Source of the DNA: an uncultured archaeon
GTDB lineage: Archaea; Aenigmatarchaeota; Aenigmatarchaeia; GW2011-AR5
Assembly: GCA_964373695.1 (NCBI GenBank)
Contig: CAYJVT010000001.1
Location: forward strand, 22,328 to 86,327
Length of the DNA: 64,000 nucleotides
Reading direction: 5' to 3'
Part shown: piece by piece, positions 8,755-50,257 of the stretch
Numbering within the stretch: position 1 is the stretch's first letter
Layout of the letters: each line of letters opens with the position of its first letter
Translations under genes and position numbers: made by a program
The notes under the pieces: model-generated
The model's database searches: none
What the model was told of the DNA's origin: nothing
Seen by the model: the letters and a program-made list of their open reading frames with translations, nothing else

Positions 8755-8788
8755 GATAGTTATTTGGTTTCAGCGGTAAATAAAATTT

Positions 8789-9484
8789 CTATATGCCGGA
8801 GAAGTCCTTCCTCGCCTTCTCAAGCGCCTCAAAGGTTCCTACATCCACAAGCCTTTCGACCTCGAAGGCATACATCTTTTCGCCGGCCTTCAGCATGGAG
8901 GGGAATACGTCCTTCCCGAAGTCGCAGAAGCCGCTTGTTATGTACTTGAAAACCGACGGCTCCAGTATATAGACAGCTCCGCTGGCAAGATTTGACCTGG
9001 GCTTCTTGGGCTTCTCCTCAAAGGACACGATCCTTCCGTTGCCGTCCGTCTCTATTATGCCCTTTGATTGCGGATTGTTCGTTTCCATGTAGACCCCTAT
9101 GGTGGCCGCCGCGCCTTTCTTCCTGTGGAGCTTTGCCATGGCGCTCAGGTCGGCGTTTGTCATGTTGTCGCCGTAAATGACGACAAATGTGCCTTCAAGG
9201 AAATTTTCGAGGGATTTCACCCCTCCGGCCGCTCCGACAAGCTCCTTCTCCACCGTGTATAGTATGTTCACGCCGGAATCCGTGCCGTCACGAAAGTATT
9301 CGTGTATGCAGCTGGCGAGGTGGTGGGTCGTTATTACTATGTCCTTTATGCCGTGCTTTTTCAGGAGCTCTATTATATGCCATAGTATTGGCTTGCCGCC
9401 TACGTCTATCATCGGTTTGGGCACCTTCTCGGTGAGCGGAAGAAGCCGCGTCCCTTTGCCGGCGGCCACTATGACGCCTATCAT
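8789..9484 (-). CDS. hddC: Sugar-phosphate nucleotidyltransferase (candidate D-glycero-alpha-D-manno-heptose-1-phosphate guanylyltransferase)
   Basis: 231 aa: MIGVIVAAGKGTRLLPLTEKVPKPMIDVGGKPILWHII... (G-x-G-T-R-L loop). It lies next to gmhA and the hddA-like kinase. The hddC assignment is contextual. Confidence 0.7.
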   Translation of the reverse strand: MIGVIVAAGKGTRLLPLTEKVPKPMIDVGGKPILWHIIELLKKHGIKDIVITTHHLASCIHEYFRDGTDSGVNILYTVEKELVGAAGGVKSLENFLEGTFVVIYGDNMTNADLSAMAKLHRKKGAAATIGVYMETNNPQSKGIIETDGNGRIVSFEEKPKKPRSNLASGAVYILEPSVFKYITSGFCDFGKDVFPSMLKAGEKMYAFEVERLVDVGTFEALEKARKDFSGI

Positions 9485-10311: not shown

Positions 10312-10314
10312 CAC

Positions 10315-18130: not shown

Positions 18131-19819
18131 ATGAAAAAATACGCGCTGGCGGCGGCGCTTTGCCTCCTGATTGCCTCGATGGTGCAGTATGCCCTCTTCT
18201 TCGGGCTCCATCCCGAAGGTCTGGTATTCAACTCGCTTGGCGAGGACGAGGCCCTGTTCGTCACTGCCATAAAGCTGTCTGAGTTCGGCTACGAAAGCCC
18301 GTGGACCTTGGAAAGCGACGGCGTTGTCAGGCTTGCGTTCCTGAACCCGGCTAACGGCCCGGTTTTCATGCTGTTCCCTATATCCGTTTTTTACGCCGCT
18401 TCCGGCATAAGTGCCTTGGGGCTATTTGCGCTCTTCAAGCTCTTTTCGGCGGCGTTGATGCTCGCAGCCATATACCTGCTTGTCAGGCATTTCGATTTCA
18501 AATCAAGGTATAGGATTTTTATCCTACTCGTGCTTTCTGCAGGGTTCGGCGGATTAATCCATCTCGTGTCATCCTTCTTTTACCCGGACCGCCTTCTGTA
18601 CCCACAGTCGCTTTTCGGATTCGGCGTCAGCATCTTCCGCTTTGTGGAATCCTATCAGGCGTTCTCGCTTGCCCTGGGGCTCATGTCCCTGTTATTTTTC
18701 GTGAAAAAAAGGATTCTTCTATCGTCAGCGTTCCTCGGATTTACGGTTCTCGTGTATCCTTTTCACGGCATATCGTTCTTCATAGTAATGGCCATTTATT
18801 GCCGCGTCTTTTCGCTTGGAGCGTCTCATATATCAAAGGTGTTCGCGGCCCTGCTGGCCTTTTCGTCTGTATGGGCATTTTCATACTTTTTCCAGCCGGT
18901 TCTGTTTGACAACTATGCAAATGCGGTAGGCACGGTGAGCGTCAACGTCCTGCCTTCCGTTCTCCTGGGACTGGGGCCTCTGTTCATATTTCTCCTGTAC
19001 GACATGAAGAAAAGGTTTCCGTTTGTTTCTGAAAGGAGGCATTTGGCGTTCTTTCTTGCATCCTTCGCGCTCATGTCGTACTACCAGATATCAAGCTCGG
19101 TGTGGGCGCCGCCTCTTCCCTCTAATCCACTGTTCGTCATTTTCAGCGTGCCATTCCTCGCCTTTCTTGGATATCTTGCAAAGAAGATGCTGGAAAGCGG
19201 GCATGAAAAGCGCATTGTTTTCATGTATGCGTGGTTCGTTGTATTCCTCTTCATTGTGGTGTTTCCAGTCAAGATATTCTCGGTTCTGCCGCCGAAGGTG
19301 ACGGTGTTCCTTTATTTTCCGCTTGCTTTCCTGGCTTACGAGGGGATGAAGAAATCCGGTAAAGTCTTTATTGCCGTTGTAGCGGTTTCTGCACTGTCAA
19401 TATTCTTCTTCTATTCGTTCGAGCAGATGGACGCCAGGGATATCTACGATAACGGCACCATTAAGGAGCAGAACTTCTTTTACACTGAACCAGACATAAA
19501 GGCTCTTGGTTTCCTGAAGGGCATGCCGGCCGGGAATGCGATATCATCTCAGGCCATAGGAACTTACCTGCCGTATTATTCAGGGAAGAAATCCCTTCTG
19601 TTCGGCACCAACAGGGGCGATATAGTCCTTAATGTGGGCGAAAAGCTTTCGGATTACAGGAAGTTTTATTCGTCTCCGGACAGAAGCGTTCTTGAAAAGT
19701 ACGGCATCAGGTACGTGTTTTACGGGACTTTTGAAAAACGCCTGGGAGATTTAGGAAGCCCCGATTATCTCAGAAAGGTGTACAGCGACGGCACCGAGAT
19801 ATACGAATTCATCCCATGA
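18131..19819 (+). CDS. Polytopic membrane protein with C-terminal soluble domain, GT-C-like; member of a 3-paralog family in this window
   Basis: 562 aa with >10 predicted TM helices. Its C-terminus ...EKYGIRYVFYGTFEKRLGDLGSPDYLRKVYSDGTEIYEF aligns with the C-termini of the proteins at 20515..22248 and 56706..58538. Confidence 0.5.
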   Translation: MKKYALAAALCLLIASMVQYALFFGLHPEGLVFNSLGEDEALFVTAIKLSEFGYESPWTLESDGVVRLAFLNPANGPVFMLFPISVFYAASGISALGLFALFKLFSAALMLAAIYLLVRHFDFKSRYRIFILLVLSAGFGGLIHLVSSFFYPDRLLYPQSLFGFGVSIFRFVESYQAFSLALGLMSLLFFVKKRILLSSAFLGFTVLVYPFHGISFFIVMAIYCRVFSLGASHISKVFAALLAFSSVWAFSYFFQPVLFDNYANAVGTVSVNVLPSVLLGLGPLFIFLLYDMKKRFPFVSERRHLAFFLASFALMSYYQISSSVWAPPLPSNPLFVIFSVPFLAFLGYLAKKMLESGHEKRIVFMYAWFVVFLFIVVFPVKIFSVLPPKVTVFLYFPLAFLAYEGMKKSGKVFIAVVAVSALSIFFFYSFEQMDARDIYDNGTIKEQNFFYTEPDIKALGFLKGMPAGNAISSQAIGTYLPYYSGKKSLLFGTNRGDIVLNVGEKLSDYRKFYSSPDRSVLEKYGIRYVFYGTFEKRLGDLGSPDYLRKVYSDGTEIYEFIP

Positions 19820-20510
19820 GCCTGATGGCCATGAGCCTTAGCGCCATGCGCGGGCCGGACTTTATCCTGAAAGTGGAGAATTCGCTGTGGGACCACTTTA
19901 CAGGGAATTCTATTATGTTTCCTCCGCTCTTTTTTATTCTCCACAGCATCTCGGCGTCGAACTCGAATCCGCCGGATTTCATGCTGGCCAGGCATGATAA
20001 CATTTTCCTCGTCATGACCTTGGCGCCGCATTGGGTGTCCGTAATCCCTAGGCCGAAGAGAATGTTGACGTAATGGCTGAAGACATTGCCGAGAAGCCGC
20101 CTGTAGGCCGGCTGTTTTTTCGTCACGAATGATTTTTCCATGTTGCGGGAGCCTATTACAATGCAGTCCGCGCTTTTCCGGCAAGTCTCCATCATGGAAC
20201 GGAAATTGCCGGGCCCGACGGAGCCGTCGGCATCCGTAAAGCCTATTATATCTCCGCTGGCATGCCTTAGCCCTTCCATCACCGCCCTTCCCTTTCCGAG
20301 CCGGTTTCCGGACTCGATGATTCTCACGTCCTTATGAGCCTTCATGAAGCTTTTCGTGATGGAAGCCGTCGTGTCGCTTCCGTCGCATACCACTATAATC
20401 TCAAACTTCATCCCTGACTTCTTGAAGTGCCTGAAATAAGACTCCAGCGTTCCTTCTATCCTCTTCTCCTCGTTGTAGGCCGGTATCACGATGGAATACG
20501 AATTCTTCAT
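19809..20510 (-). CDS. GT2 glycosyltransferase, dolichyl-phosphate hexose synthase-like (DPM1/AglD/AglJ-type)
   Basis: From MKNSYSIVIPAYNEE... with ...DGSDTT...TDADGS... (DxD). ~230-aa soluble GT-A. Confidence 0.8.
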   Translation of the reverse strand: MKNSYSIVIPAYNEEKRIEGTLESYFRHFKKSGMKFEIIVVCDGSDTTASITKSFMKAHKDVRIIESGNRLGKGRAVMEGLRHASGDIIGFTDADGSVGPGNFRSMMETCRKSADCIVIGSRNMEKSFVTKKQPAYRRLLGNVFSHYVNILFGLGITDTQCGAKVMTRKMLSCLASMKSGGFEFDAEMLWRIKKSGGNIIEFPVKWSHSEFSTFRIKSGPRMALRLMAIRLMG

Positions 20511-20514
20511 GGCA

Positions 20515-22248
20515 TCATCTTCTGTAAACGTCAAACTTTCCGTTCCCCCACACTTTGTCGCCCGAAGCCGCCGCTCCGGCGCTTCTTTCGTAGGGGCCTA
20601 TAAGTACGTAGTCTGCTCTGTATTTTTCCCGGTTGGCTGCGTCCTCCAAATACCTCCTGTAGTTTTCCAGTATGTCAGCTTTCTTGGATTCGGGTATTCC
20701 GCTTCCGTACTCGAGGGAAAAGAGGTAGAGGTCCCAGAATGCTATTTCGAAGGACGATTTATTGAACGTATTGGTTCTGTGGTCTATTATATAGGAATTT
20801 CTTGTCTCTTCGTTGTTTATCATTCCACTGACATGGGATTCGTTGATGCCCAGCATCGAGTATGATATGTAGAATCTCTCCCATATCTCATCCGTCGTTG
20901 CAAGGGAATACGGGCCGTAAGGAAGGTATACGTTGTTATGGGTGTAGAGCGGTATGAGATAGCTCTGCTCCGTGCTCAACGTCAGCACGACATCGTCCTT
21001 TTCCGTATTTTCATCGAGCCACTCGTAGAGCTCTTTGTCGCTGTCGTCTATGGCGTAGAGGCTGTGCTTTTTGTCGGCAAATGAATACTGCGAGTAGAAT
21101 CCTATCGAGAAGAGAAATATGAACAGAATAGCGCCTATCTTCCTCATATCAAAGCGCTTTTCCGCGGCCTGCCACAGCGCGTAAATCATCATGATGGAGG
21201 CGAATGGCGCCATTGCAAACTCGTAGTGGCTTTTCTGTATCGAGAATCCCGTGATTATCTGGGAGTTCATGAGGAAAATTCCGGAAATTATTATGGAGCC
21301 CATGAGGAGGGAAAAATAGTCTTTTTTTGAAAACGCGTAGAAAATGGCGATGATAACCGCATATTTTGCCGTCTCTGCTATAGGAAGAGGGGACGAATAA
21401 GTTTTTCCGTTCCTTGTCGATATGTCCTCCAGAAAGCTCTTGTCGAAGGACGTATAGGACAACCAGAAAGGCAGCGAAACCGCGGCGAATACCGCGAGTA
21501 TGATAACAACGTGCTTCAGAATCCCGGGATTTTTCTTTGCCGCAAAATAGATGGTATGGAGCGCGAGAACGCCTGCGAATATCGTCCAGTAGAAAAAATA
21601 CGTATAGAACAGGAGTCCTGAAACGAGCCCGCATAGGATAGAATAAAATGCCTTTCTTTTTTTCATGGAAATGTAGAGGAGGAATACGGAAATGGCGAGA
21701 AAGATGAAAGTCATCTGTATGTGCGGTATCCTGCCGAAATAATTAAGAGGCCCGGATGCGTCCAGTATGTTTGTCGCGTGATAGGATATGTTGCGCAATG
21801 TGACAGGCGGCGTCACAATATAATCAAAGGCTATCAGCATGAAAACCGGCGCCAGGATGCTCAGATGAAGGTTTCCGGTCTGCCTGTAGATGAGCATGTA
21901 GATTATGAGAAATATTATGACTGGGAAGATGAAATTGCCGGCCGCGAAGGCGCCGGAAACCGAGCCTGAAAGAAGCGACATCGCTGCCAGTAGAGCCGTC
22001 GGAACGAGCGGCACGAAGGGGTTTATTTTGCCCTTGTATTCGTAAACGGTCGGGTCTCCTGGTATGTTGCCCTCGTAAAAATCCCTCGCAAGGGATGCGT
22101 ACGTAGTCTGGTCCCTGGAATACGCAAAAACGCCGTTGACGGCAAGCTGTGTGTAGCTGTCATCCCCTCTGAAGAGGGGCATCAGGATATTGGCTGTGGA
22201 AAAATAGATGCCGCAAAGAAGCGCCGCGGCCAGCACTATCTTTTTCAT
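20515..22248 (-). CDS. Large polytopic membrane protein, GT-C-like, paralog A
   Basis: 577 aa. The N-terminus MKKIVLAAALLCGIYFSTANILMPLFRGDDSYTQLAVNGVFAY... and C-terminus ...EWLDENTEKDDVVLTLSTEQSYLIPLYTHNNVYLP... are clearly homologous to 56706..58538. Confidence 0.6.
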   Translation of the reverse strand: MKKIVLAAALLCGIYFSTANILMPLFRGDDSYTQLAVNGVFAYSRDQTTYASLARDFYEGNIPGDPTVYEYKGKINPFVPLVPTALLAAMSLLSGSVSGAFAAGNFIFPVIIFLIIYMLIYRQTGNLHLSILAPVFMLIAFDYIVTPPVTLRNISYHATNILDASGPLNYFGRIPHIQMTFIFLAISVFLLYISMKKRKAFYSILCGLVSGLLFYTYFFYWTIFAGVLALHTIYFAAKKNPGILKHVVIILAVFAAVSLPFWLSYTSFDKSFLEDISTRNGKTYSSPLPIAETAKYAVIIAIFYAFSKKDYFSLLMGSIIISGIFLMNSQIITGFSIQKSHYEFAMAPFASIMMIYALWQAAEKRFDMRKIGAILFIFLFSIGFYSQYSFADKKHSLYAIDDSDKELYEWLDENTEKDDVVLTLSTEQSYLIPLYTHNNVYLPYGPYSLATTDEIWERFYISYSMLGINESHVSGMINNEETRNSYIIDHRTNTFNKSSFEIAFWDLYLFSLEYGSGIPESKKADILENYRRYLEDAANREKYRADYVLIGPYERSAGAAASGDKVWGNGKFDVYRR

Positions 22249-22340
22249 GAGTTTAATGTTGCAATGAGCTTTTTATACTGTGAAGCCGTCTTTGCAATAT
22301 ACTTTTAAATACTATTAAAATTAATAAAAATTCAGGTACC

Positions 22341-23804
22341 ATGTCGGAAATTCTTCTCATCCAGCCAAATATAGGCATACACGATTTCCTAGCCACCAGA
22401 TTCCCCGACCCTCTGCTCGCAATAGCCTCGGTGCCGCATATGAGGGGTTACAAGGTCAAGATACTTGACCAGAGGATAGAAAAAAACTTCAAGCATCTTC
22501 TGGAGCAGGAAATCGGAAAAAAGCCGCTGTGCATCGCCCTGCCTGTTATGACTGGCGGCCAGATACTCCGCGCCCTTGAGATATCGAAATTCATCAGAAG
22601 CATCGACAAAGACATAAAAATAGTCTGGGGCGGGCCGCATCCGACATTATTCCCTGTCCAGGTCTTGGAAAATGAAAATGTGGACATAATCGTGTCGGGC
22701 GAGGGCGAAATAACGTTTTTCGAGCTTGTCGAGGCTCTTTCAAAAGGCGCTCCTCTTTCAGGCATAAAAGGGATATCGTATAAGGAGGACAGCAGCATAA
22801 AAACGAATCCGGAAAGGGAGCTTATCAAAAATCTTGATGAGCTGCCGCCTATTCCATACGACCTGATAGACGCAAGCAAATATAATCCGACATACATATC
22901 AGGAAGGAAAGCCTTCACGCTCCTGACATCGAGGGGATGTCCATATCGATGCACGTTCTGCTTCGCTACTGCATACTACAACTTCACATGGCGCGGCTAT
23001 TCCGTGGACAGGACGATGGAAATGATACATGAAGCTGTCAACAAATTCGGCGCGCAGACAATACTGTTCCAGGAAGACAACTTCGCGACCAGCATACCGA
23101 GATGCAACGAGATATTTGACAGGATTATAGCGGACGGCCTCGACATTACGTTCAGCCTGGTGGGTATACGCGCCACCGATGTCGCAAGGATGGACCTGGA
23201 CAAGATGTACAAGGCCGGGTGCAGGAACTGCGACATGGGCGTCGAATCAGGGGACCCTGAAGTGATGAAAACCATGATAAAGGCCCTGACGCCGGAACTC
23301 GTCCTGGACGTGAACAGGAAGATAAGGGATTACGGCATAAAGGTGAAATATTCCTTCATAGCCGGCCTCCCGATGGAGAAGGACCCGAAGATATCGATAA
23401 ACTTCGCATTCAAGCTCATAAAGGAGAACAAGAACGCGTATACGCCGTTCTTCCCCTACACGCCTTTTCCGGGCACTGAAATGTACCATGCCGCGATAGA
23501 AAAAGGCTTTGTGCCGCCAACAACGCTCGAAGGCTGGGGCAATTTTGACCTGGAGCACTGGAGGGACCACTATCCCAGCTGGTACACAGAAGAGGAGAAG
23601 CGATGGATAGAGGGCATAGAAAGGATGTCGGTCCTAGGGAACCGCAACTCGAAATACAAGATATCAAACAAGACTTTCAGGTTTTTCTTCGACCTGTACC
23701 ACCCGATTGCCAAGTTCAGGTTCATGAGGAACTACTACGGGATGCCGCTTGACATAAAGATGCAGAACAAGGTCATGAATATGGTAGTCAAGACGCTTGA
23801 TTAA
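22341..23804 (+). CDS. B12-binding domain radical SAM enzyme (class B rSAM, probable C-methyltransferase or related)
   Basis: 487 aa with an N-terminal cobalamin-binding Rossmann domain and a radical SAM motif SRGCPYRCTFC (CxxxCxxC), then ...GVESGDPEV.... Confidence 0.85.
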   Translation: MSEILLIQPNIGIHDFLATRFPDPLLAIASVPHMRGYKVKILDQRIEKNFKHLLEQEIGKKPLCIALPVMTGGQILRALEISKFIRSIDKDIKIVWGGPHPTLFPVQVLENENVDIIVSGEGEITFFELVEALSKGAPLSGIKGISYKEDSSIKTNPERELIKNLDELPPIPYDLIDASKYNPTYISGRKAFTLLTSRGCPYRCTFCFATAYYNFTWRGYSVDRTMEMIHEAVNKFGAQTILFQEDNFATSIPRCNEIFDRIIADGLDITFSLVGIRATDVARMDLDKMYKAGCRNCDMGVESGDPEVMKTMIKALTPELVLDVNRKIRDYGIKVKYSFIAGLPMEKDPKISINFAFKLIKENKNAYTPFFPYTPFPGTEMYHAAIEKGFVPPTTLEGWGNFDLEHWRDHYPSWYTEEEKRWIEGIERMSVLGNRNSKYKISNKTFRFFFDLYHPIAKFRFMRNYYGMPLDIKMQNKVMNMVVKTLD

Positions 23805-25636
23805 TCAATAACAACGAGCTGCTCGTTCACGGATTTTTTTGTCTCTTCAAGATTCGGATAAAGGCTGAACGCCTCGAACTTGTCTCTCCAGTATTCCGAC
23901 TCGCTTAGATATTTCTCTACAAGCCGTATTCTTTCAGCCGCCCCGCCGACGTTGCCGGAATTAAACTCGCATGCGGCAAGCGTCATGTTTGCAAGCGCGT
24001 GGCCTGAAGTGACCACATCGCATATGTATCTCATCTGCCTGACGATCTTAGACAGCCTATCACGATCTTTTATGTTCATGACCCTCTCGTAATTTATTTT
24101 ATAATTCATGTAGAACCATATATCCATCAGCTGCTCCGAAGTCGGCTCCGCATCCAGGTTGCCGCTTTCGAATGGGTTGGCGAATTTTTTCACTTCCTTT
24201 TTGTGCTCGACGGTGTTCTGCTTCCCGTGGGGGCCTATCATGAACCGCGTTTCATTCGTCTGGAGCTTGTCCTCTATCAGGCCCTCTTTCACCATCGCCT
24301 TGTATATCGGGGTAGAGGGCAGAGGCTGCAGTATGTTCAGTGCATACCAGTCCAAGTCCAGCTCAAGTGCAAGGTTCATGGTATCGAGCATCATTCTCAG
24401 CGTTTCATGGGGAAAGCCCAGCATGAGGAAGCCGCGGGAGAATATCTTGGGATATTTCCTTAGAAGGGCCGCCGCATTCCTGAAATTGTCCACTGTCCCG
24501 GGCTTTTTTATGTCCAGAAGTATTTTCGGGTTTCCGGATTCGATGCCGAAGAAAAGCCCTATGCATCCCGATTCGGCCGTAGCCTCTATTATAGCAGGCT
24601 TGCACGCAGCAGCTATGACGCCGTTGGAGGCGTCCCATGTTATGCCGAGGTTGCGCCTTTTTATCTCCTGGAAAAGCTCTATTGTCCTCTTCTCGTTGAA
24701 GAAAAGGTCGTCGTCAAGCCACATTATATGCTTCACGCCGTATTTCCTGGCAAGGAGTTCTATCTCGTCCGCAACGCTTTCAATGCTTCTCTGCCTGACA
24801 CCCATGCCATTGAAGCTGCGGACGCTGCAGAACGTGCACATCGCCCGGCATCCCTTGTTGGAAAGCACGGTCGCGACCCTGGTTCCTGGCTCAAGCAGCG
24901 CAGTGAAGGAGCCGATGGTGCCCACGGAAGAATAATTCGATATATCGACAAGATCGTACGCCGGTATCCTGTTCAAATCATCCGTCTCCGGTGCCTTCCT
25001 TTCCTCCAGCGAATAATATTTGCCGCCTGCAATCACTGACACCTGATAAATCTCATCCCCATGACCGTTCGCGGCCTCAAGAAGCTTCTGGAAAGCCACC
25101 TCGCTCTCGTAGGAGCATGCTATGAGCCTTTCGTAGTCTATTGAGCGCAGAACCCTTTCTGTGTCGTTAGACACGTGAACGCCTCCGACAATTATCGGCA
25201 GTTCCTTTCCGGCGACCTCGCTGCATACTCGCACAAAGCTGTCGTGCGTCATCGTGAACATGCATGTTATGCCGACCGCGTCAGGCCTGAATTCGTCAAT
25301 CTTTCTGGCCAGAAGGCCTTTCCATTCGGCATCGTAATCCATCTTGCCCCCTGATTCCACGGCCCTCTTTATCACATGATAATTTAGGTCGACAATCTCG
25401 GGCTCGTGGCCATTCTCTCGCAAAACGTCGGCGAGAAGCAGCGGGCCATAAGGCGGATATGTATAACACCTTTTCTGCAATGCGGCCTCAAAGTTGAATT
25501 CCTCTGATGCGATGTCCGGCGGGTTGACGAGAAGCACCTTCCTAGCTTTTTTTCCGCCGAATATCTCGCGTATTCTCGCCAATATTGCCGCCTTCGCCTC
25601 CTGTCCCGGCTCGTGCTCTTTCAGAAGCTGCTCCAT
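23801..25636 (-). CDS. B12-binding domain radical SAM enzyme
   Basis: 611 aa with ...LLVNPPD... B12-like N-domain, NKGCRAMCTFC (CxxxCxxC) and ...FGIESGNPKIL.... Its stop codon overlaps the convergent rSAM gene's stop within the palindrome GATTAATC. Confidence 0.85.
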   Translation of the reverse strand: MEQLLKEHEPGQEAKAAILARIREIFGGKKARKVLLVNPPDIASEEFNFEAALQKRCYTYPPYGPLLLADVLRENGHEPEIVDLNYHVIKRAVESGGKMDYDAEWKGLLARKIDEFRPDAVGITCMFTMTHDSFVRVCSEVAGKELPIIVGGVHVSNDTERVLRSIDYERLIACSYESEVAFQKLLEAANGHGDEIYQVSVIAGGKYYSLEERKAPETDDLNRIPAYDLVDISNYSSVGTIGSFTALLEPGTRVATVLSNKGCRAMCTFCSVRSFNGMGVRQRSIESVADEIELLARKYGVKHIMWLDDDLFFNEKRTIELFQEIKRRNLGITWDASNGVIAAACKPAIIEATAESGCIGLFFGIESGNPKILLDIKKPGTVDNFRNAAALLRKYPKIFSRGFLMLGFPHETLRMMLDTMNLALELDLDWYALNILQPLPSTPIYKAMVKEGLIEDKLQTNETRFMIGPHGKQNTVEHKKEVKKFANPFESGNLDAEPTSEQLMDIWFYMNYKINYERVMNIKDRDRLSKIVRQMRYICDVVTSGHALANMTLAACEFNSGNVGGAAERIRLVEKYLSESEYWRDKFEAFSLYPNLEETKKSVNEQLVVID

Positions 25637-25735
25637 ACAAGAACTAGCATTTCACAGTTTTTAAAACTTGTAAAAGCAGTTCACGCCCTGCAGGTGGCTA
25701 TGTTGCCTGCAAGACCGAAAGCGATGGAATTATCA

Positions 25736-26143
25736 TTACGCGCTCGGGATCAACGTTCTTTTCCTCAGGTCCCTTTGTAATCTGGGGCGCAGCAAGATGT
25801 CCCTGAATGCGTCACCGACAAGGTATGTTCTTGTCATGAACTCGTCCTCGCTTATGCCGAAATTTTCTCTCGCCGCCTCCCTGTGCATGACTTTGTCTGG
25901 AAATTTCTCGTCAGCGCCGAGCCAGAAATGAAGGTATTTGGCAATTTTATGATATGTTACAACTCTGTCAAGATGCTCCTGCGGTATTCCTGTCGAGATG
26001 CATGCATGATTTCCGCCTTCTGCCATTCTCCTTAGGCATGCCTCGGCGTCGTCGTACAGGGGATATATTCTCGAAGTAACTCTTGATACGTATTTTCTTG
26101 CCAGTTCTTCCGCCCTTTCAGCCGGAAGACCAAACATTCCCAT
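25736..26143 (-). pseudogene. N-terminally truncated HAD-like hydrolase (motifs II-IV present, DxD motif I absent); likely a gene remnant
   Basis: 135 aa with ...CISTG... and ...TRTYLVGDAFRDIL... (HAD motifs). The upstream in-frame sequence is open to a stop at 26237-26239 but has no DxDxT motif. Compare the intact paralog at 32935..33594. Confidence 0.4.
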
Positions 26144-26213
26144 GATTTCCGCATACTGGTGCCCGGCAGGCTTTCCGCCTCCTTCTTTTAAGCTTATCTG
26201 CGATATGTGAAAA

Positions 26214-27149: not shown

Positions 27150-27179
27150 TCATTTAAGCCTTTTTCTCATACGTAAAGC

Positions 27180-43487: not shown

Positions 43488-44258
43488 ATGGACGTTGTGA
43501 TACTCTGCGGCGGCCGCGGAACACGGCTTGCTGAAAAGACTTCTGTGATGCCGAAGCCGCTCGTTCCGATAGGGGAGAAGCCGATAATCTGGCATATAAT
43601 GAAGCTGTATTTCCACTACGGCTACAAGAGGTTTGTTCTTCCTCTAGGATATTTGGGACATGAGATAAAGAGGTTCTTCGTCGAATATCCGTGGATAAGC
43701 GGGGACTTCGAGCTTAATATGCATTCCGTGTCGGTGCCGAAGCCGAGGGAAGACTGGTCTGTGGCGCTTGTCGACACCGGTATCGACTCTAAGACGCAGA
43801 AAAGGCTGCATCTGGTGAAGGAGCACATAAAAACCGACAGGTTCATGCTCACGTACGGGGACGGCGTCGCCGACATAGACATCGGAGACCTTGTAAGAAG
43901 GCATGAATACCTGAGGAAAACATATGGCGTCCTGGGCACGGTAACTCTCCATACTCCGAAATCAAAGTTCGGCGTGGTCGACATAGAAAAAGACCTTGCC
44001 ACGGCATTCAGGGAAAAGCCTGATGCCGACAAGTTCGTGAATATAGGATTCATGGTCCTTGAAAAAGGCGTCTTCGACTACATGGACGGCTCGGATGTGA
44101 TGCTTGAGACTTCTCTTCTGCCGAAGCTTGCAGCCGAAGGCAAGATAGGATTCTATCACCATCGAAACTTCTGGGGGTGCATGGACACCTATGGCGACTA
44201 TATGCACCTTAATGATATATGGAAAAATGAAAGGCCGTGGAAGGTATGGCAGGACTAG
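43488..44258 (+). CDS. rfbF: Glucose-1-phosphate cytidylyltransferase
   Basis: MDVVILCGGRGTRLAEKTSVMPKPLVPIGEKPIIWHIMKLY... matches the RfbF/DdhA N-terminus. ~256 aa. Confidence 0.85.
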   Translation: MDVVILCGGRGTRLAEKTSVMPKPLVPIGEKPIIWHIMKLYFHYGYKRFVLPLGYLGHEIKRFFVEYPWISGDFELNMHSVSVPKPREDWSVALVDTGIDSKTQKRLHLVKEHIKTDRFMLTYGDGVADIDIGDLVRRHEYLRKTYGVLGTVTLHTPKSKFGVVDIEKDLATAFREKPDADKFVNIGFMVLEKGVFDYMDGSDVMLETSLLPKLAAEGKIGFYHHRNFWGCMDTYGDYMHLNDIWKNERPWKVWQD

Positions 44259-45229
44259 ATTTCTGGAAGGGTAAAAAAGTGCTTATAACGGGAGCCACCG
44301 GGTTCATAGGCTCTCACGTAGCTTCGGCTCTGTGCAGAACAGCTGATGTCACGGTGCTGGAAAGGGATAGTACAAAGGATTCTTTTCTCACTCTGTCGGG
44401 AAACATGAAACACGTTAACATAGCGAGGGGAGAGCTTGAAAGCATGGATGCTGTGATGCGCGTCCTTGCTGAGTATGAGATAGACACAGTCTTCCATATA
44501 GGCGCCCAGCCGATAGTGGAAATATCCAAAGTAGAGCCCAGGAAGACATTCGAATCAAACATAGAAGGGACATGGAACGTACTGGAAGCCTGCCGCCTCG
44601 TTTCGTATGAAAGCAGGAAGCTACAGAGAATAATCGTTGCGTCAAGCGACAAGTCCTACGGCAGCCAGGCGCCGCCTTACACTGAGGACATGCCCCTCGG
44701 AGGCGAGTCTCCATACGACGTGTCGAAGGCGTGCGCAGACCTGATATCACAGTCGTACCGAAAAAACTATGCTCTGCCGATATGCATCTCCCGCCTGGGA
44801 AACGTTTTCGGCCCGGGCGACACGAACTTCAACCGTATCGTGCCTGGAACTATAAAGTCCATAATCGAAGGCGGCGACGTGAAAATAAGAAGCGACGGCT
44901 CTCTGGTCAGGGAATATTTCTATGTGAAGGACGCCGTCTCGGCCTATCTCACATTGGCGGAAAACATGCACAGGAAGGAAGTTCTTGGCGAAGCCTTCAA
45001 TTTCGGCAGCGGCGAAAAAATGTCTGTCCTGGACGTGGTGAAAAGGATTTCGGACTTCATGGGATACAAAGGGCAGCCCAAAATACTCGATTCGGCAAGG
45101 AACGAGATACAGACGCAGTTCCTGTCGACGGGAAAGGCAAGGCGTATCCTTGGATGGTCGCCTTCGTTCTCATTTTCCGGCGCTTTGCCGGAAACCGTGG
45201 GATGGTACAAAGCATTCCTGGGTGGATGA
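44246..45229 (+). CDS. rfbG: CDP-glucose 4,6-dehydratase
   Basis: ...LDFWKGKKVLITGATGFIGSHV... (RfbG/DdhB N-terminal signature) with a YDVSK catalytic pair. Confidence 0.85.
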   Translation: MAGLDFWKGKKVLITGATGFIGSHVASALCRTADVTVLERDSTKDSFLTLSGNMKHVNIARGELESMDAVMRVLAEYEIDTVFHIGAQPIVEISKVEPRKTFESNIEGTWNVLEACRLVSYESRKLQRIIVASSDKSYGSQAPPYTEDMPLGGESPYDVSKACADLISQSYRKNYALPICISRLGNVFGPGDTNFNRIVPGTIKSIIEGGDVKIRSDGSLVREYFYVKDAVSAYLTLAENMHRKEVLGEAFNFGSGEKMSVLDVVKRISDFMGYKGQPKILDSARNEIQTQFLSTGKARRILGWSPSFSFSGALPETVGWYKAFLGG

Positions 45230-45230
45230 A

Positions 45231-46529
45231 ATGGAGAAAGAACTTAGGGAGGAAATAAGGAAGAAGGTTGCAGAATACTACAGGGAAGTCCTGTCGGAAA
45301 GGCAGAGGCACAAGATACCGGCATCGGGAAAGGTCTTTGACGAGAACGAAATGATGAATGCCGTTGACGCTGTACTGGACGGTGTTTGGACCCACGGAAG
45401 GTTCGCTCTTGCATTTGAAAATGCTCTCTCCTCATTTCTAAGCGTAAGGCACTGCGTCATAACCAATTCGGGGTCGTCAGCTAATCTTCTCGCGGCCTCT
45501 GTACTGTTCTCCGCTGAGGTGGAAAACAGCATCAGGAAGGGGGATGAGATAATCACGGCCGCAGCCGGTTTCCCGACGACGACAAACCCTATAATACAGA
45601 ATGGCGGTGTCCCAGTGTTTGTCGACATAAAAGAGGGCACATACAACATAGACGAAAGTCTTGTGGAAGATGCCATAACAGACAAAACAAAAGCCATAAT
45701 GACGGCCCATACTCTGGGAAATCCTTTCAACTTGGATAAAATTGTGTCAATATGCAAAAAGCACGGCCTGTTCCTTATAGAGGACTGCTGCGACGCCCTC
45801 GGCTCAAAATACAGGGATAAATACGTATCAACATTCGGCGATTTGGCGACTTTCAGCTTTTATCCGGCCCATCATATAACAATGGGGGAGGGAGGGGCGG
45901 TTGTCACGAACTCCGACATACTTGAAAAGTGCGCCGAATCCATAAGGGACTGGGGAAGGGACTGCTGGTGCATGCCTGGCGTGGACAACACATGCGGAAA
46001 GCGCTTCTCCTGGAAGCTCGGCGGGCTCCCGGAAGGATACGACCACAAATATACGTATTCCAGGCTCGGATACAACCTTAAGGCAACGGACATGCAGGCT
46101 GCCATAGGCCTTGCCCAGCTCGGCAAGCTCCCTTCGTTCATCGAGGCCAGGAAAAGGAACTTTGATGCTCTCAAGTCGGCGCTTTCCGGGTTCGACTGCC
46201 TTGCATTCGCTGAAAGCGAGCCTGGCGCGGAGCCGTCATGGTTCGGGTTCATCATAAGACTGAAAGGGGGGTGCGGCTTCAGCAGGGAGCATCTGACAGG
46301 CTTCCTGGAAAAAAACGGGATAGTGACGCGGCTTGTATTCGCCGGAAACCTGACAAAACAGCCCTATTTATTCAACGGAAATGTTGATTACAGAATCTCA
46401 GGAAATCTGGAAAAGTCGGACAACGCCATGAAGAACGCATTCTGGATAGGCGTCTGGCCCGGTATTACCGAACAGGACATAAGCCATATATACGAGACGT
46501 TTGGAAAATTTATTGGTGGTTCAAGATGA
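45231..46529 (+). CDS. ddhC: CDP-6-deoxy-D-xylo-4-hexulose-3-dehydrase-like (E1), DegT/DnrJ/EryC1 PMP-dependent family
   Basis: MEKELREEIRKKVAEYY... with ...VITNSGSSANLLA... and ...SFYPAHHITMGEGGAV... (His replacing the Lys, as in E1 dehydrases). ~433 aa. It directly follows rfbG. Confidence 0.75.
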   Translation: MEKELREEIRKKVAEYYREVLSERQRHKIPASGKVFDENEMMNAVDAVLDGVWTHGRFALAFENALSSFLSVRHCVITNSGSSANLLAASVLFSAEVENSIRKGDEIITAAAGFPTTTNPIIQNGGVPVFVDIKEGTYNIDESLVEDAITDKTKAIMTAHTLGNPFNLDKIVSICKKHGLFLIEDCCDALGSKYRDKYVSTFGDLATFSFYPAHHITMGEGGAVVTNSDILEKCAESIRDWGRDCWCMPGVDNTCGKRFSWKLGGLPEGYDHKYTYSRLGYNLKATDMQAAIGLAQLGKLPSFIEARKRNFDALKSALSGFDCLAFAESEPGAEPSWFGFIIRLKGGCGFSREHLTGFLEKNGIVTRLVFAGNLTKQPYLFNGNVDYRISGNLEKSDNAMKNAFWIGVWPGITEQDISHIYETFGKFIGGSR

Positions 46530-47473
46530 AGCCTCTCGTGAGCATATGCATACCCAATTACAACGGAGAAAGGTATATAAGGCACGCCATAGAGAGCGCC
46601 CTGGCGCAGACATACCGCAGGACTGAAATCATCGTGACGGACAACGCATCCACGGACGGCTCGTGGGATATAATAAAATCCTTCAGGAGGATAAAAAAAT
46701 TCAGGCATAAGTCCAACATGGGATATAACAGGAACCTCAATACATGCGTAGAGCTTGCAAAAGGAAAGTATGTGAAGATTCTACATTCCGATGACATGCT
46801 TGAAAAGGATGCCGTGAAAACGCAGGTGGAAGCGATGGAAAGCGCGCCGGCAGCCGGCTTCATATACAGCCCGGTGAAGCTTATTGACGAGAAGGGGGAT
46901 TTCATTGAAAATTTCTCCGCCGGAGACGCCGCCCTCATAATACCGGGGAAGCAGAAACTGGCCGAGCTACTCAATGGCAACCATATAATGTTTCCTTCTG
47001 TCATGATAAGGGCCGAATGCTTCAGGAAGGTCGGTTTGTTCGACGGTGAAATACCGTACTGCAATGACTGGGACATGTGGATGAGGATATCCATGAAATA
47101 TGACGTCGCGTACAGCAATTGTGTTTCCGCATCATACAGGGTATACCGCCATAGCGGAGGCACCGTCAGGTATGAGGTTCATGACATATCGGGCTTCCAG
47201 ATGTACATGTGCCTGACAAAAATCCTCTCCATGATAAGCGACGAATCTATCCTGAAAAACGGGAGAAGATACTATAAGAATCTTGCGATGGAGCAGATAT
47301 CCAGGGGCCTTTCCCTGATAAAGAAGGGAAGAAAATCCCACGGCAGGAGATACGTCCTGGCGGCTTCTTCCATGTATGACGGCTTCCTGTTCAGGCTGTC
47401 CGTCTATGCCGTATATCTTCTGACATATGCCGGCATGAGCGGAATTATTCTCAGGCTGGGAAAAATCAAGTAG
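46526..47473 (+). CDS. GT2 glycosyltransferase
   Basis: MKPLVSICIPNYNGERYI...TDNASTDGS...HSDD (DxD). ATGA overlap with ddhC. Confidence 0.8.
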   Translation: MKPLVSICIPNYNGERYIRHAIESALAQTYRRTEIIVTDNASTDGSWDIIKSFRRIKKFRHKSNMGYNRNLNTCVELAKGKYVKILHSDDMLEKDAVKTQVEAMESAPAAGFIYSPVKLIDEKGDFIENFSAGDAALIIPGKQKLAELLNGNHIMFPSVMIRAECFRKVGLFDGEIPYCNDWDMWMRISMKYDVAYSNCVSASYRVYRHSGGTVRYEVHDISGFQMYMCLTKILSMISDESILKNGRRYYKNLAMEQISRGLSLIKKGRKSHGRRYVLAASSMYDGFLFRLSVYAVYLLTYAGMSGIILRLGKIK

Positions 47474-47549
47474 GACATTATTCGAAACTCCTGTATATAT
47501 TCATAAATTTATTTGGGCATGTTATGTTACCAAAAACTTTGGTGTAAAT

Positions 47550-48437
47550 ATGCGTATACTTGTGACTGGCGGAAGCGGATTCGTAGGCAGGAATGCGGCG
47601 GAACATTTCGGGAAAAAACACGAAGTCCTGGCGCCAACGCACAGGGAACTGGACCTGCTTGAGGAAAACAAGGTAAGGGATTTCTTCAGGCAGAATGAAG
47701 TGGACGTTGTAGTCCACGCTGCAATAAAGCCAGGAAACAGGAATACAAAAGAGACTTCCAACCGATTTTACAGCAACGTCAGGATGTTCTTCAACATAAT
47801 GCGCAATTCCGACAGGTTTGGTAAGATGATATTCACGAGTTCTGGCGCCATTTATGACATGAGGTATCCGATACAGAAAGTGACGGAGGATTTCGCCGGC
47901 GAACGCGTCCCGGCAGACGACCTGGGCTTTTCCAAGTATATAATATCAAAACACATCGACCACTCGCCAAACGTGACGGAGCTCAGGGTATTCGGGGTTT
48001 TCGGGAAATACGAGGATTATGAAATAAGGTTTATTTCAAATGCAATTTGCAGGGCGCTTCTAGGTCTGCCGATAGCAATAAAACAGAACAGGGTTTTCAG
48101 CTATGTTTACATTGATGACCTGATGAAAGTAATGGAGCACTTCATCAAAAAGGATGGTGAATACAGGTCGTACAACGTCACGGACGGGCTCCCTATGGAG
48201 CTTTTGACCATCGCAAAGAAGGTATCTGAAATAGCCGGAAAGGACGCGGGTATCAAAGTGAGGTATGAAGGCATGGAAGACGAGTACAGCGGAGACAATT
48301 CACGCTTGAAGAAAGAGACAGGCATCGGATTCACGCCAATAGGCGATGCAATAAAGAACCTTGTTGCATGGTATGAAGAAAATATAAGCCAAATCAACAA
48401 AGACCTGTTGGTTCTGGATGAAAAGAGTAGGTGGTAA
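47550..48437 (+). CDS. NAD(P)-dependent SDR reductase/epimerase (candidate CDP-4-keto-3,6-dideoxyhexose reductase, RfbJ/RfbS/YerF-like)
   Basis: MRILVTGGSGFVGRNAAEHF.... 295 aa, the size of abequose/paratose synthases. Confidence 0.65.
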   Translation: MRILVTGGSGFVGRNAAEHFGKKHEVLAPTHRELDLLEENKVRDFFRQNEVDVVVHAAIKPGNRNTKETSNRFYSNVRMFFNIMRNSDRFGKMIFTSSGAIYDMRYPIQKVTEDFAGERVPADDLGFSKYIISKHIDHSPNVTELRVFGVFGKYEDYEIRFISNAICRALLGLPIAIKQNRVFSYVYIDDLMKVMEHFIKKDGEYRSYNVTDGLPMELLTIAKKVSEIAGKDAGIKVRYEGMEDEYSGDNSRLKKETGIGFTPIGDAIKNLVAWYEENISQINKDLLVLDEKSRW

Positions 48438-48442
48438 TAAAT

Positions 48443-50257
48443 ATGATGATACTATCCGACTACATTATGAAGAGGCTTGTTGAATACGGGGTCAGGCATA
48501 TTTTCACTATCACTGGCGGCGGCGCCATGTACCTTAACGATGCCATGCAGAAATGCAAGGAAATAGAATACATATGTAACCACCACGAGCAAGCGTGCGC
48601 CATGGCCGCGGAAGGCTACTCGAGGGCGTGCGAAAAGATGGCCGTCGTCCAGGTGACGACAGGCCCGGGGGGCACCAATACGGTTACCGGGGTCTTGGGC
48701 CAGTGGACGGACTCCGTGCCAGTATTGTATATCTCCGGCCAGGTGAAGCTGGAGACTTCTGTTGAATCGTGCCTAGATATAGGACTGAGGCAGCTGGGCG
48801 ACCAGGAAGCCAGGATTGTGAAAATAGTGAAGCCAATAACCAAATTCGCTGCTGTCGTAAAGAACCCGGAAGATATCAGGAAACTCCTTGAGAAAGCGAT
48901 ATACATCTGCACACATGGCAGGCCTGGACCTGTCTGGCTTGACATACCGACAAATGTGCAGAGCACGCTGATAGACGAAACAAATCTGGAAGGGTATGAC
49001 GAAAAGGAAGATGAGATGAAGTTCAATGGGGACAGTTTGAAGGAAAACGTAAAGAAGGTAGTTGCGCTTATAAAGGCGTCCAAGAGGCCTGTAATCATAG
49101 CGGGCCGCGGAATAAGGATTTCAGGCTCGCGCGACATTTTCCTGGGCATAGCAGAGAGCATGGGGATTCCAGTCCTGTCCACCCACAACGGCTACGACGT
49201 AATCTATACGGACCATCCTCTGTCAGTAGGGAGGATAGGGATATACGGCGACAGGTCTGGCAACTTTGCGCTGCAGAATTCCGATTTATTGATATCAATA
49301 GGCTCGAGAAACAACGTGAAGCAGGTGAGCTACAACTGGAAATGCTTCGCAAGGGAGGCAAAAAAGGTTTTTGTTGACATAGACGAGTCCGAGCTGAAGA
49401 AGCCTACGATAAGCCCCGATATCGCAATACATTCCGACGCCAAGGATTTTCTTCTGGAGCTCAAATCTCAGATGGCGAAGGAAAAAATGCCTTCTTTCTC
49501 TGAATGGCTTAAATGGTGCATCGAAAGGAAAAAGCGGTATCCTGTGGTACTTCCCGAATATAAAAAGCCGGGAAAGTTTGTCAACCCATATTATTTCAAC
49601 CAGAAGGTCACGGAATGCCTGAAAGAAGACGACATCATTGTGACCGGCGTCGGCACGTCATTCTTTGCTGTCTATCAGTCGGCAATAGTGAAGAAAAACC
49701 AGCGGTTTATATGGAACACCGGATGCTCGGCAATGGGGTACGACCTCCCGGCTGCGATAGGCGCGTGCGTCGCAAGCGGAAGAAAGGACATAATATGCCT
49801 CGCGGGCGACGGGAGCATACAACTGAACATCCAGGAGCTTCAAACTATTTCTTATCACAAAATGCCGATAAAGATTTTCGTCTACAACAACAACGGATAC
49901 GTCTCCATGAGGCAGACGCAGGAGAACTTTTTTGACAAAAGGTACATAGGATGCGACAAGAACTCTGGAGTAGGATTCCCGGACATCAGAAAAGTGGCAG
50001 CCGCCTACAACATACAGTCCGAAATAATAGAAAGTCATGAAGACATGGAGAGAAAAATAATGAAAGTTCTGGGGCACAAGGGACCAATTGTATGCGAAGT
50101 CGTGATGGACCCTGACTGCAGGTTCCTGCCGAAGATAACGTCGAGAAAGGTTAACGGCACTTTCGTTTCGAGCCCGCTGGAAGACATGTCCCCATTCCTT
50201 GAGCGCGAGGAACTCAAGGACAACATGATAATACCCATGTGGGAAGAAAGCAAGTAG
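48443..50257 (+). CDS. Thiamine-diphosphate-dependent acetolactate-synthase-like enzyme (YerE-like carboligase candidate)
   Basis: ~604 aa with TPP_N (...GVRHIFTITGGGAMYLNDAM...VQVTTGPGGTNTVTGV...) and a TPP-binding C-domain (...GDGSIQLNIQEL...). Confidence 0.7.
   Translation: MMILSDYIMKRLVEYGVRHIFTITGGGAMYLNDAMQKCKEIEYICNHHEQACAMAAEGYSRACEKMAVVQVTTGPGGTNTVTGVLGQWTDSVPVLYISGQVKLETSVESCLDIGLRQLGDQEARIVKIVKPITKFAAVVKNPEDIRKLLEKAIYICTHGRPGPVWLDIPTNVQSTLIDETNLEGYDEKEDEMKFNGDSLKENVKKVVALIKASKRPVIIAGRGIRISGSRDIFLGIAESMGIPVLSTHNGYDVIYTDHPLSVGRIGIYGDRSGNFALQNSDLLISIGSRNNVKQVSYNWKCFAREAKKVFVDIDESELKKPTISPDIAIHSDAKDFLLELKSQMAKEKMPSFSEWLKWCIERKKRYPVVLPEYKKPGKFVNPYYFNQKVTECLKEDDIIVTGVGTSFFAVYQSAIVKKNQRFIWNTGCSAMGYDLPAAIGACVASGRKDIICLAGDGSIQLNIQELQTISYHKMPIKIFVYNNNGYVSMRQTQENFFDKRYIGCDKNSGVGFPDIRKVAAAYNIQSEIIESHEDMERKIMKVLGHKGPIVCEVVMDPDCRFLPKITSRKVNGTFVSSPLEDMSPFLEREELKDNMIIPMWEESK

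Follow-up and report, generated by a model that had tools for sequence, protein, structure and literature searches.

Diverged cobalamin-dependent radical SAM enzymes of uncharacterised families in a cell-surface glycan island of an Aenigmarchaeota archaeon

Two convergent genes of an Aenigmarchaeota (DPANN) archaeon add new, as yet uncharacterised enzymes to a known class, that of the cobalamin-dependent (class B) radical SAM proteins. The island in which they lie encodes no fewer than four such enzymes, all deeply diverged, which with a probability of roughly 0.55 tailor sugar building blocks for a surface glycan. The whole stretch of DNA analysed, hereafter the window, is 64,000 nucleotides long and forms one large glycan island, which comes to ~70 kb in all. 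The host was recognised from the two genes, named A and B, whose products are 95% and 89% identical, respectively, to those of an Aenigmatarchaeota metagenome-assembled genome (locus L002). The genome is ~97% coding. A literature search on cobalamin radical SAM enzymes in glycan or DPANN settings returned only lipid-modifying enzymes and a general review, and the families of A and B are undescribed there.

Both open reading frames were recovered as predicted: ORF A (22341..23804, + strand) encodes 487 aa and ORF B (23801..25636, - strand) encodes 611 aa. The B12-binding domain (PF02310) scored 53.0 bits in A, where it spans residues ~26-129, and 49.8 bits in B, above the gathering score of 32.1. 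The Radical_SAM domain (PF04055) scored 67.2 and 70.3 bits, respectively, against a cut-off of 29.5. The motifs GCPYRCTFC and GVESGDPEV in A and GCRAMCTFC and GIESGNPKI in B were all found, and the CxxxCxxC cysteines (C200/C204/C207 in A, C263/C267/C270 in B) are invariant in the 30-sequence alignment of each family. AlphaFold2 models reached a pLDDT of 89.3 for A and 85.6 for B. In Foldseek searches with these models, the top matches were TsrM, OxsB, QCMT, CysS, TokK and AprD4 (E 1e-23 to 1e-11), with TM scores of 0.62-0.73 for A and 0.47-0.54 for B. Like A and B, TsrM, OxsB, QCMT/MgmA, CysS and TokK have an N-terminal Rossmann B12-binding domain, a partial TIM barrel with CxxxCxxC and the same overall fold, but identity is only 14-20% and none of them covers the extra six-helix domain at the C-terminus of B (residues ~500-610), which lies outside the reach of the structural matches. 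By domains, motif and predicted fold, A and B are thus bona fide class B radical SAM enzymes.

A scan of A, B and two further enzymes of the island, C (after splicing) and D, against the curated NCBIfam models (HpnJ, BchE, PhpK, QCMT, AprD4 and others) reached none of the cut-offs. HpnJ converts a hopanoid-linked amino sugar into a cyclitol ether, its substrate being a lipid-attached sugar. It was the best NCBIfam match of both A and spliced C (TIGR03471; 138.1 and 188.5 bits), yet these scores, like those of B (94.8) and D (158.4), fall far under the cut-off of 577.6 bits; hopanoid genes are absent, and the host here is an archaeon. The best matches of B and D were the P-methyltransferases PhpK (TIGR04479; 105.5 bits for B and 98.6 for A, cut-off 600) and Sden_1168 (196 bits for D, cut-off 575), again far under the cut-offs, and no phosphonate genes (PEP mutase etc.) were seen in the window. 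A and B also stayed below the cut-offs of the anaerobic Mg-protoporphyrin cyclase BchE (TIGR02026; 117.7 and 92.2 bits, cut-off 481.35), the MCR glutamine C-methyltransferase QCMT (TIGR04014; 79.8 and 92.8 bits, cut-off 360) and the diol dehydratase AprD4 (NF033070; 69.5 and 73.6 bits, cut-off 500). Given the BchE scores, the BchE name carried by some JGI homolog records is an over-annotation. In agreement with the original prediction, no characterised clade with a non-carbohydrate substrate claims A or B, whose scores fall well short of the cut-off for each NCBIfam equivalog. Among PDB sequences, A matched AprD4 (top, E ~1e-17) and OxsB best, and the best match of B was AprD4 (E ~1e-17). Over all searches, the best matches of B were AprD4, ApyD, QCMT and the P-methylase PhpK. 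GenK, GenD1 and Fom3 were not among the PDB matches of either. Sequence and fold searches of the PDB showed relationships at superfamily level, with no subfamily signal, and the predicted folds resemble all solved members of the class to about the same degree.

The third enzyme, C, is encoded at the end of the window on the - strand. The window holds only part of a 443-aa LAGLIDADG intein (63221..64000), which extends past the window end, and the C-extein (62480..63220), which begins at the third Cys of CxxxCxxC. The full gene was found on contig L087, which overlaps the window: two stretches of the window tail were compared with it and proved identical, at collinear positions. Its 882-aa product combines B12-binding and Radical_SAM domains with intein and LAGLIDADG domains. 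A search for the combination of intein, radical SAM and CxxxCxxC found nothing. The expectation of three paralogs in the locus therefore held for the intein-bearing gene and fell short in number, as a fourth B12 radical SAM gene, D (496 aa), lies ~5 kb beyond the window end. The term paralogous applies at the superfamily level and not more closely, since all pairs among A, B, C and D are 24-32% identical (A and B 24%, E 1e-19). Such identities mark the four enzymes as old, distinct subfamilies, and the value for A and B rules out a recent duplication of this pair.

The island carries genes for GT2 and GT4 glycosyltransferases, a PMT_2 protein, a flippase, nucleotidyltransferases, SDR epimerases/dehydratases, RfbH, a carbamoyltransferase and a UDP-glucose dehydrogenase, with STT3 just past the window end. 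Pfam and NCBIfam delimited a CDP-3,6-dideoxy/branched-sugar module (43488..50257, + strand) comprising a G1P cytidylyltransferase-like protein, a CDP-glucose 4,6-dehydratase-like protein, RfbH (638 bits, NCBIfam cut-off 423), a GT2, an SDR and an acetolactate-synthase-like ThDP enzyme. Gene types of this module recur beside B-family genes elsewhere; as B and the module lie 18 kb apart in the window, their local tie is one at island level only.

The association with glycan genes, originally predicted from this locus, proved to be conserved far outside this genome. The B family is coherent, with 40-57% identity across archaea and bacteria and a mean column identity of 53% in the family alignment. 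All six annotated B-homolog loci have a nucleotide-sugar setting. Unbiased clustering of the neighbours at 87 B-family loci identified SDR proteins (35 loci), the two parts of a split transketolase (17 and 16), RfbH-like DegT proteins (16), GT2 (16), class I methyltransferases (16), sugar C-methyltransferases (10) and an acetolactate-synthase-like ThDP enzyme (9). The tightest neighbour is an RmlD-like reductase, present at 18 of the 87 loci, where 15 of its 22 copies are immediately adjacent to the B-family gene and 21 of 22 are on the same strand. ThDP enzymes were found at 8/80 B loci versus 0/78 A loci, and DegT proteins at 20/80 versus 4/78. These nucleotide-sugar neighbourhoods support a sugar substrate, and the suggestion that the enzymes act on NDP-sugars is well supported for B by gene context. 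In a tblastn search with ORF B of 72,556 plasmids, the single match was a distant one in Eleftheria terrae (31.7% identity), so that this search revealed no well-studied carrier.

The context of A is more mixed. Among its nearest relatives inspected (41-48% identity), the majority have GT2, GT4, SDR or methyltransferase genes nearby. The A family at large is heterogeneous: a glycan-type neighbour is present at just 38 of 78 loci, and a bacterial branch (31-36% identity) lies beside amino-acid-type genes (ELFV dehydrogenase, PALP, HMGL-like). Divergent from ORF A is a gene for a polytopic membrane protein of 577 aa (20515..22248, - strand), which gave no match in Pfam and NCBIfam scans. The two are separated by a 92-nt AT-rich intergenic region (22249..22340), a putative promoter region with the TATA-like boxes TTTTAAATA and ATTAAAATTAATAAAA. 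A GT2 glycosyltransferase gene (19809..20534, - strand) lies downstream of the membrane protein gene with a 20-nt same-strand overlap, an order kept in L002. A homolog of the membrane protein adjoins A in L002 as well, and in another locus (L001) it is directly 3' of an A-like gene, in the co-directional order B-like gene, 475-aa B12 radical SAM gene, A-like gene, membrane protein gene and TIM-barrel gene. The protein is a conserved radical SAM partner. Only 6 homologs were found among the 5.8 billion proteins searched, too small a set for a useful profile; the distant ones have as neighbours a B12 radical SAM gene (L173) or three methyltransferase genes (L174, L175). A tblastn search with this protein of 158 A- and B-family loci gave zero matches, which confines its link with A to three or four lineages.

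By analogy with the chemistry of the class, each enzyme would reductively cleave SAM at its [4Fe-4S] cluster, would then abstract a hydrogen atom from a sugar building block at an unactivated carbon and would most probably methylate that carbon with the methyl group of methylcobalamin. The conserved neighbours of B point to a nucleotide-activated deoxy, branched or heptose sugar as its substrate. Less firmly, A may work together with the 577-aa membrane protein, its conserved partner, in modifying or handling the glycan at the membrane. The closest functional analogy is with GenK, GenD1, Fms7 and Fom3, class B methylases named in a 2026 review (PMC12931638); NCBIfam and Pfam have no curated models for them, and they are likened here by described function. 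These enzymes belong to secondary metabolism (antibiotics), whereas A and B belong to a cell-surface glycan locus. GenK, GenD1 and Fms7 act on sugars, and Fom3 acts on a CMP-linked substrate.

Sugar-acting enzymes of the class need not methylate: HpnJ, AprD4 and OxsB are non-methylating. A and B might likewise catalyse ring contraction (as HpnJ and OxsB do), 1,2-diol dehydration/deoxygenation (as AprD4 does), epimerisation or C-C bond formation, which we regard as rather unlikely. It would fit the best scores of A and spliced C, obtained on HpnJ (138 and 188 bits), the best PDB matches (AprD4 and OxsB for A, AprD4 for B) and the fact that B loci often already encode classical sugar C-methyltransferases (at 10 loci) and class I methyltransferases (at 16). 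All these scores are far under the cut-offs, however, and the methylases PhpK, ApyD, QCMT, TokK, CysS and TsrM score similarly. AprD4, a 1,2-diol dehydratase whose sugar substrate is the aminoglycoside paromamine, binds no cobalamin; in both A and B, a B12-binding domain is clear. The lack of bound cobalamin in AprD4 illustrates that a related Rossmann domain can be without it (PMC12931638). No sequence or structural features distinguish methylating from non-methylating members, but C-methyltransferases occur in every group that has a characterised member (PMC12931638). Methylation by A and B is thus not readable from sequence.

A substrate other than a sugar would be harder to reconcile with the gene context. 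Modification of archaeal membrane lipids (as by the ring synthases GrsA/B or the GMGT methylase Gmm) or of a polyprenyl carrier is improbable in our view. Archaeal tetraether lipids are among the substrates of B12-binding radical SAM proteins, and Gmm homologs have been reported in a few DPANN archaea (PMC11214058). The pairing of A with a polytopic membrane protein and weak matches to ladderane-lipid and hopanoid families would also suit a lipid substrate. Against it, the neighbours are overwhelmingly nucleotide-sugar and glycosyltransferase genes, with zero lipid-synthesis genes seen in the window and at the homolog loci, and the tetraether synthase structure is absent from the PDB matches of A and B. 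The B family is moreover common in bacteria that are not known to make archaeal lipids. We give very little credence to a peptide or protein substrate (RiPP-like or a surface protein) with a coincidental glycan setting: the RiPP enzymes ApyD and rSAM_ocin_1 and the protein methylase QCMT do turn up as sub-threshold matches, but their scores fall far under the cut-offs, neither a precursor peptide nor other RiPP machinery caught notice and the conserved neighbours are sugar enzymes.

The stop codons of A and B share a 4-nt overlap, TTAA (23801-23804), which is forced by two overlapping TAA stops, and the original prediction had placed these stops within the palindrome GATTAATC. The overlap and the palindromic site were as described, but the full perfect palindrome, which holds both stops, is TTGATTAATCAA (23797..23808), 12 nt long and not 8, because both proteins end in (L/I)-D-stop. 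Such sites occur at chance level: the window has 16 perfect 12-nt palindromes (15.6 expected) and 237 8-nt palindromes (~250 expected), and GATTAATC is found three times, the two sites besides the junction being unrelated. Overlapping ends are common as well, in 6 of the 8 convergent gene pairs of the window. In L002, whose A and B are 89-95% identical, the same convergent pair is separated by a 24-nt spacer, has different stops and lacks the palindrome, and the two junctions differ by a ~35-nt indel. The overlap and the palindrome are therefore the incidental product of a recent indel of ~35 nt in a compact genome and have no conserved regulatory role; the differences from L002 and the chance-level counts rule out a conserved terminator or regulatory site, and the junction has no wider significance. 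That the palindrome nevertheless functions in this genome, as a bidirectional terminator, a protein-binding site or a means of mutual antisense control, is most doubtful. The perfect 12 nt lie exactly at the junction, next to a hairpin and a T run, and B has no oligo-T run within 300 nt, so that its transcripts would extend antisense into A; the evidence from L002, the chance-level frequency and the common overlaps speak against such a function, as do the co-directional genes of L001.

Nor do the overlapping stops leave no room for terminators, as had been supposed. A short hairpin, AACGAGCTGCTCGTT (23813-23827), and a T7 run (23834-23840) form a + strand element (23813..23840) inside the 3' end of B; the run starts 30 nt past the stop of A and is kept as T5 in L002. 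In archaea, an oligo-T run suffices for termination, and A probably terminates at this candidate site within B. A scan for sigma-70 promoters and terminators gave counts no higher than in shuffled sequence, the model being unsuited to an archaeon. Judged from the DNA, A and B each have their own AT-rich upstream region and are not co-transcribed.

To our knowledge, the characterised sugar-acting members of the class come from antibiotic and hopanoid pathways. About 84,000 B12-dependent radical SAM sequences are known, most without an assigned function and with the largest groups unexplored (PMC12931638). Tentatively, and at somewhat less than even odds, the B family would form a large orthologous group that has so far escaped recognition, made up of cobalamin-dependent radical SAM enzymes of ~600-640 aa with a C-terminal helical domain of their own. 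Its members occur in lineages as distant as DPANN archaea, Patescibacteria and Alphaproteobacteria and would be devoted to primary cell-surface glycan synthesis on nucleotide-activated deoxy or branched sugars. If so, the typical partner of the family would be an RmlD-like 4-ketoreductase, RfbH and ThDP-dependent two-carbon branching enzymes would often accompany it, and the product would be a sugar type so far assigned to no gene. A coherent family in nucleotide-sugar operons, shared by bacteria and ultra-small archaea alike, would indicate a missing enzymatic step towards the unusual sugars of O-antigen-like or S-layer glycans, and its conserved neighbours (RmlD-like reductase, RfbH and ThDP enzymes) suggest concrete candidate substrates. 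An Aenigmarchaeota cell with four B12 enzymes, one of them intein-gated in its Fe-S motif, would bear a heavily radical-tailored surface glycan. As far as we know, DPANN cells are generally thought not to make cobalamin, so the host would probably need to scavenge it. Four B12 enzymes in one surface glycan island would imply that this DPANN archaeon relies strongly on scavenged cobalamin for its host-contacting cell surface.

As the original prediction had claimed, open reading frames are present at 22341..23804 on the forward strand (A, 487 aa) and at 23801..25636 on the reverse strand (B, 611 aa), and the motifs quoted for these two convergent genes were all found. Each protein matched the B12-binding domain (PF02310; 53.0 bits for A and 49.8 for B, Pfam gathering threshold 32.1) and the Radical_SAM domain (PF04055; 67.2 and 70.3 bits, threshold 29.5). 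The cluster cysteines C200/C204/C207 of A and C263/C267/C270 of B are invariant in alignments of 30 sequences from the respective families. AlphaFold models of A and B were confident (pLDDT 89.3 and 85.6, respectively). Their best structural matches were the solved cobalamin-type radical SAM enzymes TsrM, OxsB, QCMT/MgmA, CysS and TokK, together with AprD4, although B differs from the solved enzymes by an extra C-terminal six-helix bundle (around residues 500-610) that falls outside the matched region. An AT-rich, TATA-like stretch lies 20-40 nt ahead of the ATG of each gene.

None of A, B, or the two further paralogs C (in its spliced form) and D reached a family cut-off when compared with the NCBIfam equivalogs. 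HpnJ ranked best for A (138 against a cut-off of 577.6), followed by BchE, ApyD and PhpK. For B, the best was PhpK (105 against 600), followed by ApyD, Sden_1168, HpnJ and QCMT. The best scores of spliced C (188, on HpnJ) and D (196, on Sden_1168) were likewise below cut-off. PDB sequence matches of A and B were weak, with AprD4 at the top (E ~1e-17); next came OxsB, QCMT, TokK, CysS and TsrM for A, and for B QCMT, then far weaker RimO-type enzymes, TsrM, HydE and TokK. With all equivalog cut-offs missed, A and B were not placed within a characterised clade acting on non-carbohydrate substrates, the outcome that would have refuted the original prediction; nor do these matches point to a particular chemistry. 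Both proteins belong to a known enzyme class, of which they are new and as yet uncharacterised representatives. Methylation by these enzymes seems plausible; non-methylating members of the class have no features that set them apart from methylases (2026 review, PMC12931638).

The A and B genes share 95% and 89% identity, respectively, with genes of the Aenigmatarchaeota groundwater MAG JACPAH010000006.1, which places the window in a DPANN archaeon. About 97% of the window is taken up by genes, and a single glycan island extends from about 8.8 kb to its end. This island encodes nucleotidyltransferases, a GHMP kinase, SIS isomerases, many SDR epimerases/dehydratases, GT2 and GT4 transferases, a PMT_2 protein, a Wzx-type flippase, a carbamoyltransferase, a GtrA-uridine-kinase fusion, UDP-glucose dehydrogenase and TarI/TarJ-like proteins. 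At 43488-50257 (+), a CDP-3,6-dideoxyhexose module that looks complete (cytidylyltransferase-like, 4,6-dehydratase-like and RfbH genes) is accompanied by ALS-like ThDP enzyme and SDR genes; its RfbH is a true one, scoring 638 bits where the cut-off is 423. The whole resembles a yersiniose-type two-carbon branched-sugar pathway, which to our knowledge is unusual in an archaeon.

Other features of the island were also recorded. In the 826-aa product of the gene at 28692-31172 (+), a GtrA-like transmembrane domain is fused to a phosphoribulokinase/uridine-kinase domain. The fusion is kept in L002, the closest relative's locus (827 aa), and its gene is followed by genes for a class II aldolase, a MobA-like nucleotidyltransferase, a HAD phosphatase and a TIM-barrel protein. 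A sugar-phosphate nucleotidyltransferase with an N-terminal ribbon-helix-helix (CopG) DNA-binding domain, encoded at 9481-10314 (-), may be an enzyme-regulator fusion. Between the upstream region of B and the next gene, 1.47 kb (25683-27151) are absent from L002 (81-88% identical); this recent indel beside B contains a HAD-like ORF in truncated form (135 aa) together with a 311-aa protein with weak resemblance to inositol monophosphatase/FBPase. Three island proteins of 562-610 aa, encoded at 20515-22248 (-), 18131-19819 (+) and 56706-58538 (+), had no Pfam or NCBIfam match.

Inside the window, C is represented only by a LAGLIDADG intein (63221-64000, reverse strand) and the radical SAM C-extein. 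Both tested stretches of the window tail are present and collinear on a Logan contig, L087, which carries the full C gene (6391-9039). The 882-aa product of the whole gene combines B12-binding, intein, LAGLIDADG and Radical_SAM domains, which confirms the predicted third, intein-containing paralog. The 443-aa intein interrupts the CxxxCxxC motif between its second and third Cys (GCPYVCSY/C...VNN/CNVPT, slashes marking its boundaries), so that the +1 splice nucleophile doubles as a [4Fe-4S] ligand, and unspliced C is predicted to be unable to bind the cluster. The penultimate residue of this intein is Asn, where His is usual. About 5 kb past the window end, L087 carries D (496 aa), the gene of a fourth B12 radical SAM enzyme, which is separated from C by an STT3-domain gene (402 aa) and a GT4 gene. 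The same region (L087 1-5168), which includes the STT3-domain gene, also holds an MtrA-like/pterin-binding gene divergent from D. Proteins of the MtrA family are corrinoid binders, and this one could be a candidate cofactor carrier for the B12 enzymes. Pairwise identity among A, B, C and D is 24-32% (24% for A and B, E 1e-19), which rules out recent duplication as their origin; the four are long-diverged members of a single superfamily.

DPANN archaea account for most close relatives of A (41-53% identity), and the majority of these relatives lie beside GT2, GT4, SDR or methyltransferase genes. The wider family (31-36% identity) is heterogeneous, with one bacterial branch beside amino-acid-type genes. 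Clusters of several copies are common: 25 of 73 loci carry between two and five B12 radical SAM genes within 6 kb, and an Omnitrophota locus gave eight tblastn matches within 10 kb. Arrays of four to eight paralogs per 10-20 kb were seen in six loci (L025, L011, L013, L041, L043 and L065), their hosts being Omnitrophota, Woesearchaeota, Pacearchaeota, Elusimicrobiota and a Thiosymbion symbiont. Batteries of this kind are a recurring feature of small-genome or uncultured lineages. The partner most specific to A is a 577-aa polytopic membrane protein (20515-22248, reverse strand) with only six detectable homologs among 5.8 billion sequences. Its gene is divergent from A in the window and in L002. 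In another locus, L001, it directly follows the A-like gene, within a co-directional series of a B-like gene, a 475-aa paralog, the A-like gene, the membrane protein gene and a xylose-isomerase-like TIM-barrel gene. Distant relatives of the membrane protein are encoded near another B12 radical SAM gene (L173) or have three class I methyltransferase genes after them (L174, L175).

The original prediction had also stressed a palindrome at the A/B stop codons that would leave no room for separate terminators. A perfect palindrome is indeed present (TTGATTAATCAA, 23797-23808), but the weight placed on it was not supported. It is 12 nt long because both A and B end in (L/I)-Asp-stop, and the TTAA at the junction is forced by any two overlapping TAA stops. 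Several observations argue against a functional palindrome: perfect 12-nt palindromes occur in the window at chance level (16 observed against 15.6 expected); L002 keeps the convergent pair but with TGA stops 24 nt apart; the A-like and B-like genes of L001 are co-directional; and of the window's eight convergent gene pairs, six share 4-20 nt (for example at 6197-6202, 12668-12676, 19809-19819, 41957-41970 and 58519-58538). GATTAATC is also present at two unrelated window sites, and in the alignment to L002 the window lacks about 35 nt spanning the L002 spacer and the last codons of B. Among co-directional pairs, too, a 4-nt overlap is seen in many cases. Judging from this gene layout, transcripts would have to end routinely within the opposing gene in this genome. 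An oligo-T run is sufficient for archaeal termination. A T7 run at 23834-23840 (T5 in L002), preceded by a small hairpin, lies inside B, 30 nt past the stop of A, and is a candidate terminator for A that the claimed lack of room overlooks. For B, the nearest T5 run is found 300 nt inside A, so that transcripts of B probably extend, in antisense, into the 3' end of A.

The B family is coherent (about 575-660 aa, 40-57% identity; mean column identity of 53% in the 30-sequence alignment) and is found in archaea, Patescibacteria, Alphaproteobacteria, Verrucomicrobia and Elusimicrobia. All six Pfam-annotated homolog loci have a nucleotide-sugar context; in L003, for example, a nucleotidyltransferase, a dehydratase, DegT and B follow one another on a single strand. 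Label-free clustering of every ORF lying up to 6 kb from B was run on 87 loci. SDR epimerases/dehydratases were the most frequent neighbours (35 loci), ahead of RmlD-substrate-binding reductases (18) and the two halves of a split transketolase (17 and 16). RfbH-like DegT, GT2 and class I methyltransferase genes were each found in 16 loci, a cupin-like protein of about 190 aa without Pfam match and a radical SAM-SPASM protein in 15 each, a nucleotidyltransferase-HAD fusion and a TylC3-type sugar C-methyltransferase in 10 each, and an ALS-like ThDP enzyme in nine. Of all these, the RmlD-like reductase is linked most tightly, its copies being directly adjacent in 15 of 22 cases, upstream in 17 and on the same strand in 21. 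The cupin-like gene mostly lies directly 3' of the B-family gene on the same strand (e.g., L106 12707-13303) and is absent beside B in this window; a DUF6016 gene occupies the equivalent position in L007 (11842-12390). ThDP-enzyme matches were found in 8/80 B loci versus 0/78 A loci, and DegT matches in 20/80 versus 4/78.

The proposed role on glycans or NDP-sugars is thus supported, above all for B, although methylation itself is not readable from sequence. The conserved sugar-gene neighbours make a strong guilt-by-association case for a nucleotide-activated sugar, of deoxy, branched or heptose type, as the substrate of B. The B family is the part of this system that merits experiment.
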